A stretch of 61,687 nt of DNA, from positions 1 through 61,687 of the forward strand of contig CAZSZE010000018.1 of NCBI GenBank assembly GCA_964610645.1, in the 5' to 3' direction. The translations under genes and the position numbers were made by a program. The DNA is from an uncultured Enterobacterales bacterium. Its GTDB lineage: Bacteria; Myxococcota_A; UBA796; CAJQPC01. Of this stretch, positions 24,509 to 29,839 are shown one piece after another. Each line of letters starts with the position of its first letter. Positions within the stretch are counted from its first letter, which is position 1. Below the pieces are notes generated by a model that was given only the letters and a program-made list of their open reading frames with translations, had not been told where the DNA came from and ran no database searches.

Positions 24509-24748
24509 CTGCTGTGCTCCTGCCCCCTTGCTGAAGGGTACCCCATGCATGGGTTCTCCTTGCAACCCAACCGGGGCACCTGCACAATGAGGCACAGCCC
24601 CCATGATCCTCCGATCTGCCCGATGGGCCACGCGCCCCCTGCATCCCTCGGCCGGAAGCGGCAAAGCGGGGACCCTTCCCTTGGACAAGTTTGATTTGGA
24701 TGGCGCTTTGGGGGAGCTGACGGCCACCAAGAACGAGCACGCAGCGTA

Positions 24749-25579
24749 GTGTCCCAGCTGAACGGGGCGGTGGCCCTTGTGACCGGAGGCGCCCGGGGAA
24801 TCGGCAGGGCAATCTGCGAGGCCCTGGAGGCCCGAGGTGCCAAGGTGGCCTGGTGCGACCTGGATCCGGCCGGGCAAGCCGGCGGACACCTCCTGGATGT
24901 ACGGGACCGGGCTGCATTCCTCGCATGGATCCAAGAGGTAGAGGCCCGGTGGGGCCCGGTGGACCTCCTGGTGAACAACGCGGGCATCATGCCCGTCGGC
25001 CCTTTTCTCTCCCACACGGAAGCCGCGGACCGCCTGATGGTCGACGTCAACATCCATGGCGTCCTCAACGGCATCCACGCGGTGCTCCCGGGCATGTTGG
25101 CGCGAAAGAGCGGCCACATCGTGAACGTGTCCAGCATTGTGGGCCGCATGCCCATGCCTTTTGTCTCCACCTACGCCGGCACGAAGTTCGCCGTGGTGGG
25201 GCTGACCGAGTCCCTGATCCACGAGCACTGGAATTCTGGCGTCAACTTCACGATCGTGCACCCCGGCAGCGTGGACACGGAGCTTGTGGCTGGCTTGCCG
25301 GAGCCCACCTGGCCCAAGCACGTGACCCCCCAGCAAGTGGCCGCCGCCACCTGCCGGGCCATCGCCCGCAACAAGCGCCGGGTCTTCGTGCCCGCTGTGG
25401 GAGCCCTCTTCGCCCTCCTCCCCTGGCTGATCCCCGATGGAATCGGACGCTGGCTGGCCAAAGTCTTCGGCGCCCTGGACCTCATGAAGCGCGTCGATGA
25501 AGAGGGACGGGACGGGTATCGCCAGCGGGTGTTGCCGCCGGCGGGGGCGGTGGAGGATGGGGGGGAGTCTTCCGACTGA
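24749..25579 (+). CDS. SDR family NAD(P)-dependent oxidoreductase
   Basis: TGGARGIG, LVNNAG, YAGTK. Confidence 0.93.
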   Translation: MSQLNGAVALVTGGARGIGRAICEALEARGAKVAWCDLDPAGQAGGHLLDVRDRAAFLAWIQEVEARWGPVDLLVNNAGIMPVGPFLSHTEAADRLMVDVNIHGVLNGIHAVLPGMLARKSGHIVNVSSIVGRMPMPFVSTYAGTKFAVVGLTESLIHEHWNSGVNFTIVHPGSVDTELVAGLPEPTWPKHVTPQQVAAATCRAIARNKRRVFVPAVGALFALLPWLIPDGIGRWLAKVFGALDLMKRVDEEGRDGYRQRVLPPAGAVEDGGESSD

Positions 25580-25715
25580 GTCCTCGCATCCCCGGTCTCA
25601 CTGTGCTTTGGTGCGGCAGGCCTTTCGGCGGCCTCTTCCGTAGAGCGGCAGTGGACCCGTAGCACCGCAAGAGACACTCGTGGCGCGTGGTCCGGCCCAA
25701 GGGTACAATCCGGCC

Positions 25716-25943
25716 ATGTCACGTCCCCTTCACAAGCTGACCGCCGAGGCGTTGGATTTGCCCGAGAGGGACCGGCTTGCCCTGGCGGATGCGCTGATCA
25801 ACAGCGTCGAAGGTCCCGTGGACCCGGCGTGGGAAGAAGCGTGGTTGGAAGAACTTGAGGCGCGGCGCAGACATGGAACCGCTGACGTTCGGCCATGGGC
25901 AGAGGTTCGTGACAGCCTCCTCAGTACACTCGACAGTCAGTGA
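25716..25943 (+). CDS. Addiction module antitoxin component
   Basis: EALDLPERDRLALADALINS...AWLEELEAR...PWAEVR; GTGA overlap with the toxin gene. Confidence 0.85.
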   Translation: MSRPLHKLTAEALDLPERDRLALADALINSVEGPVDPAWEEAWLEELEARRRHGTADVRPWAEVRDSLLSTLDSQ

Positions 25944-26248
25944 CTCGAGCGCTGGTTCTTCACCCGGAGGCAGCAGACGAATTCAAGGAGGCCGCCCGCT
26001 GGTACGCCTCTCGAAAAAAGGGGCTGGGAGTCGCTTTCGCCATGGCTGTAGATGAAGCGCTCATGTCGATCGCCCAGCATCACCATCGCTACCCGAAAAT
26101 CAGTACGAATCGGCCTTGGCGACGGATTGGCCTGCGAGGATTTCCCTATGTGGTGTTCTACGAGGTCGAAGGGGATCGCGTCCTCGTGATGGCGATCGCC
26201 CATGGTCGCCGAAGGCCCGGTTACTGGGTGGCACGGCAAAAGGAGTAG
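25940..26248 (+). CDS. RelE/ParE family toxin
   Basis: HPEAADEFKEAARWY...GLG..F, FPYVVFY, VMAIAHGRRRPGYW. Confidence 0.9.
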   Translation: MTRALVLHPEAADEFKEAARWYASRKKGLGVAFAMAVDEALMSIAQHHHRYPKISTNRPWRRIGLRGFPYVVFYEVEGDRVLVMAIAHGRRRPGYWVARQKE

Positions 26249-26257
26249 ATCGAATGA

Positions 26258-26304
26258 CTACAAAAGCTGGCTGATCCTCAGCATCACCAGCACCTGCGGA
26301 TCCG
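26258..26304 (-). repeat. Diverged copy of the last 47 nt of CDS 27506..29839
   Basis: 40/47 identical to 27506-27552; 23-nt perfect core (26282-26304 = 27530-27552); encodes DPQVLVMLRISQLL* versus DPQVLVMLRISQLF*. Confidence 0.93.
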
Positions 26305-26306
26305 AT

Positions 26307-26409
26307 TGGAATTCTAGCGTCCGCTTCACTATCGTGCATCCCGGCAGCGTGGACACGAAGCTTGTGTAGGGGCTGAAAGAGCCCACCTGGCCCAGGCACG
26401 TGACCCCCC
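26307..26409 (+). pseudogene. Internal fragment of the SDR gene (diverged copy)
   Basis: 88/103 identical to 25229-25331 by manual count; in-frame TAG at 26367-26369. Confidence 0.9.
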
Positions 26410-26447
26410 GGCGGTCGGCTCCACCCAGAGTTTCGGCCCAACCGACT

Positions 26448-26624
26448 TCGCCAAATCGAGGGGGAGTCATTTCATACCCCCCGAGATCTGGCGAACCACA
26501 CAGCACAATTGTCGCCAATTCAAGGGGGAGATACCCCATCCCCCTCCAAATCTGGCGAACTTCCAGGCCACCACCTCGCCAATTTCGGGGGGAGTCACTT
26601 CATACCCCCCGTGATCTGGCGAAC
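26448..26624. repeat. Array of three 49-nt palindromic repeats, 64-nt period, 15-nt unique spacers
   Basis: Units 26448-26496, 26512-26560, 26576-26624; consensus TCGCCAA-n5-GGGGGAG-n-CAT-n-CCCC-n-ATCTGGCGAAC. Confidence 0.93.
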
Positions 26625-26715
26625 TCGGCGCTCCGGGACCTTTCAGCGAGATTGCACGCTGCTGGCGGCATTCTCGCTCAGGTCAAGGGGGTGGGCAGCG
26701 CTGGGCGTTCTTGGC

Positions 26716-27405
26716 TCAGGGCATGAGGAGGTAGGCCTTGCCGGCATTGATGCCGCCATCGTCGTTGCCAGAAGCCCCCACCAGGAGGTCATCGAGGCCA
26801 TCGCCGTCCACGTCGCCCGCGCTTGAGACGGAGACGCCCGCGTAGTCCTCGCTGTTCTCGCCCACGAAGCTGTAGTCCGCCAGCGAGAGGCTGCCGGCAC
26901 TGATGACACCGTCGCAGTCATAGTCGGAAAGCGGGCCGTCCGAGCTGGCGCCTGGATTGAAAGCAGCGTTTGCGTCGTCGCAGTCCCCTTCACAAGAGGA
27001 ATACCCATCCGCATCCGCGTCGTCCTGGTTCAAGGAGGCGTCGGAGTCATCGCAGTCCGTACCGTCCGCGATGTGACCGTCAGGGGCCACGCAGGCTTTC
27101 GTCGCCGCATCCGCATCCCCGTAGCCGTCGGCATCGGCATCGGGGTACCAGGTGGCCGCATCGACCGCATCGTCTTCATCCACCCGGCCGTCGCAGTCGT
27201 TGTCGATGCCGTCGCAGATCTCCGCTGCGGCAGGATTCACCGCCGCGTTGCCATCGTTGCAGTCCTGGTTTGCGCCGAACCCATCCCCATCCGCATCCAC
27301 CGACTCGGTATCGTCGGGTGGGATTCCGGTGTCGCCCAGCCCCGTGTCCTTGGACGGCGTTGGGCAGGAACAGAGCAAAAACAGGAGCAGAAACCGCGTA
27401 CTCAT
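26716..27405 (-). CDS. Lipoprotein with MopE-like metal-binding repeats and a single FG-GAP repeat (probably truncated)
   Basis: LLCSC lipobox; DADGDG..DCND...NP.A.EICDGIDNDCDG repeats; AGDVDGDGLDDLLVGA, then a stop soon after. Confidence 0.8.
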   Translation of the reverse strand: MSTRFLLLFLLCSCPTPSKDTGLGDTGIPPDDTESVDADGDGFGANQDCNDGNAAVNPAAAEICDGIDNDCDGRVDEDDAVDAATWYPDADADGYGDADAATKACVAPDGHIADGTDCDDSDASLNQDDADADGYSSCEGDCDDANAAFNPGASSDGPLSDYDCDGVISAGSLSLADYSFVGENSEDYAGVSVSSAGDVDGDGLDDLLVGASGNDDGGINAGKAYLLMP

Positions 27406-27505
27406 GACCGCGACCACCGGGTTTTGGTTCAGGCGAATGCCCATGCTACCACCCCAGACGTCGCCCGACCCGCCGCCCGCGCCATCAAGGGAGGGATTGA
27501 GCCAC

Positions 27506-29839
27506 CTAGAACAACTGACTAATCCGCAACATCACCAGCACCTGCGGATCCGGGTAGAACATGGGCTCCTGCCAGAACAGCCGACTGAAGGTGATGCCTC
27601 CCAACGCGGGCCGGATGCCAAGGGTGTCCGCCACCACGCTGATGCCAAACGTGCCGCCAACGCCCAGCACCCCGTCCAGGGGATCCGTGAACTCCCCGGC
27701 ATCCAGCCAGCCGGCCTCGACGCCCGCCGAGAGCTGCACATCGGTGATCCACCACAGGGGCACATGCAAGGAGAGGTTTCGCACTGCGAGGACCCGGTAC
27801 TCCCCAGCCAGGGATGCCTGGCGTCGCCCGAGTATTTCGCTGCTCGGCACGGAGTACAGCCCGCCAGATCCCCCCATTCCCAACATCCGGTGTTCCAGGT
27901 TGCCCCGCATCCAGCCGAGGCTTGCCTTTCCTGCAAAGGCGTGACGCGGATGGACTGCCCGCACGCCCCGTGCCCCCAAGCGTCCCCTCAGCCAGAACGA
28001 GTCGGACTCCGGCACCATGCCGCCTCCCCCATCGATCCAGAGGCGCCGGCCCCGCTCGGGGAAGTAGGGAGTGACCCGCGTGTCCCAGGCGTATCCAGCC
28101 CCGAGATCCACATGGAAGAGCGCATCCTCCGTCGGCCGGTACTCCGCATCCAACAAACCCCCCGTGCCGGACAGCCAGACCAGGTGCTCTCGTCGCATCC
28201 GATCCCGAAAGGGGCCCACGTACCGGACCAGGAGGGACTCCATGGAAACCACGGATCGGGCATCGTGGGACACCACCACCTGGGCCAAGCGGTGGGTGTT
28301 GTAGGGGCGGCGAATGGTGGTCCAGGCGACCCCCTCGAACCGGCGTTCGGTCAGGTGGATGCCCCCCAGGTAGATGCCCGGAATGAGGGAAACCCCCCGG
28401 GGCCACCGGTCGTTGGCCCGGTTCGCCTGGGGCACCTGGCGATCCGGATCGAGCCAGACCCGCTGCACCTTCTCGTCGAAAGCCTGGATGCGCCAGTCCG
28501 GCCCGGAACCCGTGAGCCAGACCTCCCGCTCTCCGTCCACATCCACCACCACAGGGACCGGGGCAGCATCCTCCCCCGCACGGCGCTCCATCCAGAGGCG
28601 GGGCTCCGCGCCGGGATCCACTGCCAGGATCAAATCCTGGCGCGGCATGGGTGCCTGCCAAGCCACCGCCAGCTCACCCTCCAACCCCTGGGCCACAAAG
28701 GCAGCCGGCAGGGTCTCCCCGGCCAGGAGGTCCCGGGCAATGGCCTCGGCGGCTGCCTTCCCTGCCATGGACTGCACCCAGTGAGCCACAAGCGCCCCGG
28801 GAACCCGCGGGCGGAAGCGCTCCAACAGGTCATCGGCCAGGGGGTCCGACTGCAGCGCCTCCCCAAAGACATCGGAAAGGAACAGGGTCCGGCCGTCGTA
28901 GAGCAGGGTGTGTGCGCCCGGGAGGCCCAGGCGAGCCAACAGCCGCTGGTGCTCGCCCGCGATGACCGCATCAGCTGCAACCTGCCCCAGGACCTCTGCC
29001 GCCAGGGCCCGGTGCCAGGGATCGGAAAGGGGAAGGGCTGCCTCCAACAATCCCTGGGCCACCGGCGCCCGGTGGTACTGAACCACGCTTGGGCTGACCC
29101 GGAAGGCCAGTTCGGAGACAAAGAGCACCCCGGGACCCGCCCGCACAAGCCGTCGATAGAGCGGGGCCACCACCACCACCACCCGCCCCGGTTGATCCAG
29201 GGTCCAGGCAGCCTGGGCCAGGCGGGCAAGCTCCCCCTCCAGGGGGCGAGCGTGCTGTCCCTCTGAAACAAGCACCGTCTCCAGTCCCTCCTCTCCCAAC
29301 ACCGTGGTGGTCGCATCAGCCAGCACCGCGATCGCCACCCGATAGGACAGGCCGGTCCACTGTGCCGCCCCCTGGCCCACGACATCGTTCACCACCAGGA
29401 CCGCCCCTTCAGGCCCCGCCAGATCCACCTGCCAGGTCACCCGCGGAGCAGAGTCCCCCCGGACCGGCTGGGGAAACCAGCCTCCATTTGCCCACAACCC
29501 CCGGCCCTCCAGACCTCCCATCGCGCCATATCGCTCGGGCAGCAGAGTGCGAAAAGTGATGCAGTCCTCCCCGGCCACTTCCCACGTCATCTCCCCCCGG
29601 TTCTGGCGCCCCGGTGCCGTGCGGGGCCAGAGCAGGTCATCGGTAGGCCAGGGCAGGTCCTCCAGGGGATTCAGCCAGTCCTCCGGCCCGGCTCCACACA
29701 CGGTTCCGCGAATGCCGAGAAAGGTGGAATCCACCTCAGCATCGACGGACAACTCCATCGCGAGGGCTGGCGGGGCGCGAAGCACCCCCGTAAAAAGCAC
29801 CGTCCACAGCACCGGCAGGCAACCCACTGGTCCCCGCAC
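27506..29839 (-). CDS. Exported protein: M1-aminopeptidase-like scaffold (no HExxH) fused to an Omp85/BamA-like beta-barrel
   Basis: Signal peptide; LPERYG, GGWFPQP, LDPD...NRANDRWP; C-terminal WDTR...PERG, GG...L...G...AGEYR; terminal Phe. Confidence 0.55.
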   Translation of the reverse strand: MRGPVGCLPVLWTVLFTGVLRAPPALAMELSVDAEVDSTFLGIRGTVCGAGPEDWLNPLEDLPWPTDDLLWPRTAPGRQNRGEMTWEVAGEDCITFRTLLPERYGAMGGLEGRGLWANGGWFPQPVRGDSAPRVTWQVDLAGPEGAVLVVNDVVGQGAAQWTGLSYRVAIAVLADATTTVLGEEGLETVLVSEGQHARPLEGELARLAQAAWTLDQPGRVVVVVAPLYRRLVRAGPGVLFVSELAFRVSPSVVQYHRAPVAQGLLEAALPLSDPWHRALAAEVLGQVAADAVIAGEHQRLLARLGLPGAHTLLYDGRTLFLSDVFGEALQSDPLADDLLERFRPRVPGALVAHWVQSMAGKAAAEAIARDLLAGETLPAAFVAQGLEGELAVAWQAPMPRQDLILAVDPGAEPRLWMERRAGEDAAPVPVVVDVDGEREVWLTGSGPDWRIQAFDEKVQRVWLDPDRQVPQANRANDRWPRGVSLIPGIYLGGIHLTERRFEGVAWTTIRRPYNTHRLAQVVVSHDARSVVSMESLLVRYVGPFRDRMRREHLVWLSGTGGLLDAEYRPTEDALFHVDLGAGYAWDTRVTPYFPERGRRLWIDGGGGMVPESDSFWLRGRLGARGVRAVHPRHAFAGKASLGWMRGNLEHRMLGMGGSGGLYSVPSSEILGRRQASLAGEYRVLAVRNLSLHVPLWWITDVQLSAGVEAGWLDAGEFTDPLDGVLGVGGTFGISVVADTLGIRPALGGITFSRLFWQEPMFYPDPQVLVMLRISQLF

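Follow-up and report, generated by a model that had tools for sequence, protein, structure and literature searches.

A crossed junction of two displaced gene pieces as the likely scar of an additive merger at an intergenic slot of an uncultured marine bacterium

In Escherichia coli, linear DNA has been found to be trimmed, ligated and integrated by a single crossover (Amarir-Bouhram, Goin and Petit 2011, PMC3240628). In the excerpts of that paper used here, a diagnostic PCR product was obtained in 56/60 clones, the 14 sequenced clones carried duplications of 109-950 bp, and this recircularisation route occurred at ten times the frequency of homology-facilitated illegitimate recombination. We describe here a locus that clearly exemplifies an already known type of event and not a new mobile system; nothing shows it to be an att site or a dedicated system. 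The window, that is the whole stretch of DNA analysed, is contig CAZSZE010000018.1 (C18; 61,687 nucleotides) of a draft genome (G000; 4.71 Mb in 182 contigs, 64% G+C, 96% complete) whose organism was detected in marine metagenomes. The locus lies between gene A, a short-chain dehydrogenase (SDR) gene, and the right-hand gene B, and reads A - TA - B'/A' - repeats - lipoprotein - B, where TA is a toxin-antitoxin module and B' and A' are worn copies of pieces of the two flanking genes. This stretch is probably the fixed scar of a single additive merger that left the old cargo in place.

The closest described systems are compared here through excerpts of the cited papers. Recircularisation followed by a single crossover (Campbell-type; PMC3240628) likewise adds homologous DNA, duplicates part of the target and uses housekeeping RecA only. 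That system was built on a laboratory plasmid with 1 kb of perfect homology, whereas the donor here would be chromosomal DNA of ~85% identity, both flanking genes left a piece and the intermediate was not seen. The structural features of insertion-duplication are present, namely direct repeats, an intact host gene, no recombinase in the added DNA and copies that appear to have been separately functional, although on small counts. Homology-facilitated illegitimate recombination resembles the locus in its pairing of one homologous anchor with one illegitimate join, and uptake genes are present here, but that process usually deletes resident DNA of similar size (PMC3240628) whereas both cargos were kept here. 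In the C-terminal displacement of rhs genes (Jackson et al. 2009, PMC2935791), a circle is likewise proposed to cross over and to shift the former gene end downstream, where it is retained. At rhs loci the incoming tip is non-homologous and alters function, and arrays accumulate, whereas here the peptide is nearly the same and a single event is seen. The icd/icdC arrangement with e14 (PMC13626634) similarly places an intact gene, an insert and then a dead copy of the 3' end in a row; e14 is however a 15-kb prophage, while the insert here has no recombinase and holds DNA of a neighbouring gene. Integrase-free hotspots (Oliveira et al. 2017, PMC5635113) are also variable slots between conserved genes without mobile-element genes, but in them a double crossover replaces the cargo with no duplication, whereas here cargo was added.

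Gene gain at integrase-free sites has been linked to recombination in the flanks (PMC5635113, PMC11375855), and the gain and erosion of TA modules has also been covered (PMC13617665). The earlier note on this DNA had put forward an integrase-independent way of accumulating cassettes, which is plausible as a process but is not a new idea, as the excerpts of PMC3240628 and PMC2935791 already describe it. Our keyword search of open-licence text returned no natural two-fragment junction of this kind, which does not imply its absence from print. The locus thus serves as a worked example of gene gain at integrase-free hotspots, comprising one old, apparently fixed event and no new enzyme or element. 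The features of the locus, in window positions, are the following.

24749-25579, plus strand: gene A, intact, 276 amino acids, short-chain dehydrogenase by profile match (adh_short)
25229-25331: source of the A copy, inside gene A
25716-25943, plus strand: antitoxin, putative addiction module component (PF09720), cargo X
25940-26248, plus strand: ParE-family toxin (PF05016), cargo X
26258-26304, minus strand: B', displaced copy of the gene B 3' end, stop codon included; 40/47 identical to 27506-27552
26282-26304: 23-nt perfect run, equal to 27530-27552, flush with the join
26305-26306, plus strand: B'/A' join, 2 nt (AT)
26307-26412, plus strand: A', piece from within gene A, with an in-frame TAG; 88/103 positions match along 26307-26409
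26445-26624, plus strand: three hairpin units of 64-nt period, belonging to an interspersed family like repetitive extragenic palindromes (REP)
26716-27444, minus strand: cargo Y, open frame of a MopE-repeat/FG-GAP lipoprotein
27506-27552: present 3' end of gene B
27506-29839, minus strand: gene B, intact, about 777 amino acids, start uncertain

The gene order and the ~85% identity of both copies given in the earlier note were confirmed in the sequence. Chance matches are excluded for both copies (expectation values of 1e-26 and 1e-6 against the whole genome), and each duplicated piece is present at just these two places in the genome. The peptide of B' ends in ...ISQLL* and that of B in ...ISQLF*, and 6/7 base changes leave the residue as it is, as had been claimed together with the perfect 23-nt core; path averaging by the Nei-Gojobori method gives 5 silent and 2 replacement changes. 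B' and the end of B form a direct repeat flanking 1.2 kb. The AT spacer is the allele carried at those two positions of A by G002, one of the two congeners (G001 and G002), and because of this match the B'/A' join may be flush at 26304/26305. Two 6-bp palindromes beside the join were judged to be chance, as both are intact, derive from the source genes and are missing by eye at other scars. A' stops short of the final ~245 nt of A, which makes the second allele an incomplete unit of A 3' end, cargo and B. The interpretation given in the earlier note is supported in part.

Sequences reaching more than 31 nt to either side cross the join with 0 mismatches in 2/8 sequencing runs, X2 (study P1) and X5 (study P2), and in the metagenome record L039. 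For these comparisons the contigs of 8 of the 21 listed runs were set against the window, and contigs miss rare alleles. The X2 contig crossing the join covers 25638-26647 and the X5 contig 26190-26406, while L039 corresponds to 25895-27064 at 1160/1170 identical positions, all ten differences lying in one FG-GAP repeat of the lipoprotein (26746-26773). In X1 the join is covered by two overlapping contigs only, and the other five runs gave no piece across it. Runs X1-X4 may be the source samples, so that the independent support comes from X5 and possibly L039. An assembly chimera of two co-occurring strains would be conceivable in a draft of 182 contigs, more so with an X1 depth of ~4 in the interval against ~7 in its flanks, but X2 depth is flat (7.0, 7.9, 6.6), the bridging sequences come from X2, from the other study of X5 and from L039, and the in-frame stop means that A' is not a live allele of a second strain. 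At contig level the chimera is refuted and its probability can be considered virtually nil, as sequences bridge the join in the region (26250-26420) for which the earlier note had asked for spanning reads. The low X1 depth, together with contig breaks near 25640-25670, was also considered as a sign of polymorphism; this was rejected because X2 is flat and the overlaps look like coverage gaps.

The long pieces listed from the eight runs show the window's arrangement almost exactly, save for lipoprotein paralogs. No alternative allele was found among the listed joints, which were crowded by lipoprotein repeats, and neither was the excised circle that the earlier note had suggested looking for. 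The arrangement looks fixed in the species as far as seen. With regard to L039, the clustering of its differences in one FG-GAP repeat suggests conversion between repeats, and its first 152 nt match nothing in G000.

The divergence of the copies bears on their origin. G000 and G002 (4.7 Mb) share a mean identity of 84.0% over 1.90 Mb, and the copies are about as divergent from the resident genes as the congener is, in line with the claim that DNA came from a relative. The three alleles of A are nearly equidistant: within the 103 nt the differences number 15 between A and A', 16 between A and G002 and 15 between A' and G002. With G002 as outgroup, B' has 4 silent changes and 1 replacement of its own, which would arise by neutral decay with P of about 0.01-0.02 (binomial) and which agrees with the earlier claim that B' evolved as a functional gene end. 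Three residue changes in A are absent from A' and G002; for a recent tandem copy this gives a rough P of 0.02-0.07. The pairs A with B' and A' with the B end thus appear to have spent time as working genes in different lineages, on which the lines of evidence agree at small counts. Part of the neighbouring gene A is contained in the insert, which makes the same A-B locus of a related species the most likely source of the donor DNA. Most displaced-end scars keep one flank, which leaves the origin of the donor to guesswork, whereas here the piece of the other neighbour ties the donor to the same locus.

These counts also bear on an old tandem duplication in the lineage, in which a 1,078-nt segment (A 3' part, TA and B end) would have been copied and the interior of the second copy replaced by the repeats and lipoprotein. 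Such a history needs no circle and would suit the decay of A' (5 replacement changes including the stop), the first 9 nt of A', which match resident A and not G002, and the frequent turnover of the slot, visible in an ~890-nt deletion in a ferritin-like gene and in another repeat cluster in G002. However, a dead copy of B should change at random, and at the decay rate of A' only 0.65 silent changes would be expected in B' where 4 were seen (P 0.004); A' also shares several states with G002 against A. A hybrid history, with duplication and then allele replacement from a relative, takes two events. We therefore regard a tandem duplication as unlikely.

The lipoprotein stretch 26729-27466 is 85% identical to a broken copy at G000:C10:64349-65086, with synonymous divergence (dS) of 0.52 and nonsynonymous divergence (dN) of 0.093, a dS that resembles the species gap (0.34 for A and 0.56 for B). 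The broken copy (C10:64349-65500) carries a stop and a frameshift, and G002 has other DNA at that site. The idea that the lipoprotein was cut by the repeat array was set aside, since its end is like the ends of other family members and could just as well result from repeat loss.

The slot varies between congeners. In G002 the order is kinase, ferritin-like gene, A, a repeat cluster of ~215 nt, the last ~60 nt of the same ParE toxin and B, while in G001 it is kinase, ferritin-like gene and B, with no A at that place. The toxin tail of G002 stands directly beside the B stop, with 83% identity over 120 nt including the B end, and B' occupies the position of the working B end of G002. The adjacency of TA and B is therefore not private to G000. 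Since the layouts of G001 and G002 differ and ~890 nt of the ferritin-like gene were lost in the window, the slot turns over, and the possibility that relatives all share one arrangement does not hold. The earlier note had expected TA-only and lipoprotein-only alleles in relatives; an allele with a toxin remnant was found in G002, and no genome with a lipoprotein-only allele was found in the genome, metagenome and pattern scans. Gene B is present in 17/22 family genomes counting G000, and within ~1.5 kb of it A is found only in G002 and the A' piece only in G000. A protein scan of metagenome contigs for slot alleles gave 0 relatives among 146 candidate stretches, a scan of genome contigs gave the G002 locus only (1/97), and a degenerate pattern scan gave one record, L039, arranged as in the window. 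A 100-nt piece of the toxin gene had no match in G001 or G002. The ~215-nt cluster of G002 (C6) is unrelated to the window's array and stands where most of the TA module would be.

Our preferred reading is one homologous crossover and one illegitimate join with DNA from the same slot of a related species, which we consider probable whichever allele was resident. As to polarity, because G002 keeps the toxin-B adjacency, we tentatively favour, at somewhat under an even chance, a resident A-TA-B and an incoming lipoprotein side. The donor piece would have run from inside A through the repeats and lipoprotein into B. RecA would have paired it within B, giving B the 3' end of the donor and displacing its own former end, B', downstream, and the donor's other end would have been joined flush at 26304/26305. 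Next to the repeat array, A' would have lost its 3' part, whether already in the donor or afterwards. If a circle had closed at the B/A junction, the crossover would fall in the last 47 nt of B (or, with reverse polarity, in ~350 nt of A), whereas with a linear donor it could fall anywhere in B (or in A); both give the same product and cannot be told apart from the sequence. The earlier account, of a donor circularised at B/A that crossed over in the 23-nt core, is thus favoured in its single homologous crossover, while the circle and the core as crossover site are not shown. Likewise cargo was added and not replaced, as both cargos are present, without the lipoprotein side being shown as the incoming allele. 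Two RecA proteins are encoded in G000, as are the DNA-uptake proteins ComEC and DprA. In this way a variable slot could gain a second allele of ~85% identity alongside the first, with no exchange of the two.

The same event with opposite polarity is rather unlikely. The resident would then be A-repeats-lipoprotein-B, the donor would have brought the A 3' part, the TA pair and B' by a crossover in A, and A' would be the resident's displaced old A end, truncated later. Judged by G002 as a proxy, the circle would hold ~350 nt of A with perfect runs of 54, 32, 31, 29 and 24 nt, which are better RecA substrates than the 23-nt core. TA modules are commonly gained horizontally according to the excerpts of PMC13617665, and B' is more distant from G002 than B is. 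Against this, G002 keeps the toxin tail beside B with no lipoprotein in the slot, TA-B' is no closer to G002 than the backbone is, and identity to G002 shows no step along A, though a third lineage need not give one.

Several points weigh against the preferred reading of a crossover joined to an illegitimate end. The change counts are small and were polarised with the single outgroup G002, which is the only informative congener as G001 has no A at this place. B' is farther from G002 than B (5 copy-unique against 2 gene-unique changes), a distance that neither proves nor favours B' as the resident end. No microhomology was found at the join with the window or G002 alleles, whereas 3-10 bp are usual in homology-facilitated illegitimate recombination in the excerpts of PMC3240628. 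The missing 245 nt of A' need a separate deletion. No Ku gene was found in the genome, and a dedicated end-joining route to a circle is not evident. Neither the donor nor a pre-insertion allele of this species was found in the runs and scans, and no joint skipping the interval was present among those listed from the contigs of the eight runs, where rare alleles would be missed.

Loop-out between A and A' would be expected to excise the TA pair and disrupt A, and loop-out at the core to regenerate A-TA-B; neither outcome appeared among the listed joints. It appears quite improbable that the genus gains genes mainly in an integrase-free manner, through small circles that are cut from a relative's chromosome and integrate by 45-130 nt of gene-end homology. 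In that case both ends of such a circle would be preserved in the window, looping out of the 1,248-bp unit flanked by the 23-nt cores could allow its onward transfer, and circles could be released by the REP-like hairpin arrays.

Prophage e14 carries its own recombinase. By analogy with e14 in icd, which leaves the icdC fragment, the 23-nt run could be the att core for a site-specific recombinase that has been lost or whose gene lies elsewhere. The run is perfect and lies at the inner end of the displaced piece, the 7 mismatches all falling within its first 24 nt (P 0.006, post hoc), and three tyrosine-recombinase matches occur in G000, all on other contigs. Furthermore, a displaced end with silent changes is the icd/icdC pattern in the excerpts of PMC13626634, a pattern that is not specific to the att class. 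However, only two copies of the core exist in the genome when up to 3 mismatches are allowed, and the three sites with 4 mismatches all lie on contigs free of recombinase matches. PF00589 has no match on this contig, and PF00239 has none anywhere in the genome. Random placement yields a perfect run of at least 23 nt in 4.4% of cases, and 18 consecutive nt of the 23 are also present in G002. Unlike a foreign element, the insert includes part of a neighbouring gene, and other displaced ends show no common core by eye. We consider an att site highly improbable, and the alternative offered in the earlier note gained no support, although its remark that the slot has no recombinase gene is correct, as only the TA and lipoprotein genes lie there. 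Runs of at least 23 nt between the congeners number 5 in 1,200 nt of B and 5 in the 330-nt 3' part of A. The core is therefore weak evidence for a crossover site and is in part plain conservation, its flush position being suggestive.

Similar scars were observed elsewhere in both genomes, using gene calls made by a crude script. For crossed junctions in G000, a raw scan gave 112 pairs, which a two-copy filter reduced to one among 60 local duplications, the window's own, and G002, scanned in 120 tiles that cover 2.37 of its 4.7 Mb and miss pairs at tile edges, gave none among 15 local matches. The crossed junction is unique in the 7.1 Mb scanned, and the further dual-fragment junctions that had been anticipated were not found there. 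One-sided scars do occur: of 43 short local matches in G000, 7 link a called gene to an intergenic copy, and 3 of the 7 end at a stop codon, those of B, a dnaE2-like gene and proS. The dnaE2-like end (G000:C58:18583-22500; 94 nt, 85%) lies beyond a 3.8-kb cargo, and G002 has the empty state; its displaced copy keeps seven silent states common to G002 and its differences are mostly silent. The proS end (G000:C157:335-1900; 79 nt, 89%) is frameshifted, shows more decay and lies beyond a sulfatase cargo, and the G002 site has a different 5-kb cargo and no copy. In G002 we noticed an end of the NAD kinase gene (46 nt, 96%) with a PIN-like fragment and a PP2C piece (55 nt, 93%), while three of five 'orphan' matches were dropped (a pilin paralog at a tile edge, an FG-GAP repeat and a weak 31-nt match). 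In G002:C23 (L175:4917-6540), two identical 130-nt copies in direct orientation also flank a 1.36-kb insert, which splits a gene and has no counterpart in G000; this insert looks recent. No recombinase is encoded in the scar cargos checked, and since no core is shared by eye either, the scars fit housekeeping recombination, although one-sided cases may also be decayed integrative elements.

At the dnaE2-like locus, three cargo genes lie on one side and a sulfotransferase-like gene with a second MopE lipoprotein on the other, and in G002 a lipoprotein stands directly beside the dnaE2-like gene. This locus was tried as a second full case of crossed stacking and found weak: the best N-terminal match of the second lipoprotein is the first, narrowly (48 against 44 bits), and its longer N-terminal part prefers other proteins. 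More short direct repeats around cargo were observed at C140:4936-6607, C101:121-1188, C63:55-876 and C81:7021-9016, with cargos that include an AAA/DUF4143 gene and a weak AbiEii-like pair.

Among the resident genes, the protein of gene A shares 88.5% amino-acid identity with its G002 ortholog, and the antitoxin 79% with the module of the family member G021. The reading frames of A and B are both open. Gene B matched no family in Pfam or NCBIfam; its look-alikes are mostly from Myxococcota, which suggests that the host is probably a marine bacterium similar to myxobacteria, and Peptidase_M1 and Omp85 domains in these look-alikes are a lead only. Promoter and terminator scans at the locus gave chance level only. 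Positions 24604-24751 hold the fused remnant of the ferritin-like gene (weak AurF/DUF455), with ~890 nt gone relative to G002, and this gene is intact in G001 and G002.

The hairpin array belongs to a family with 144 matches on both strands of 38 contigs and a fold z of about -4, and Rfam gave no match for it. REP repeats and bacterial interspersed mosaic elements (BIME) are associated with an HUH/Y1 transposase (TnpA-REP). The window's array resembles them as extragenic hairpin units with many genome copies and differs in that G000 has no Y1 transposase: no PF01797 match was found in this 96% complete genome, and the one in G002 has no repeat unit within its locus. Two of the arrays adjoin transposase-like genes, which may be of the IS1182 type. 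Further arrays lie, for example, at C8:19417-19593, C104:13245-13421, C74:4743-4921 and C86:15591-15767, and several share conserved flanks, also in G002.

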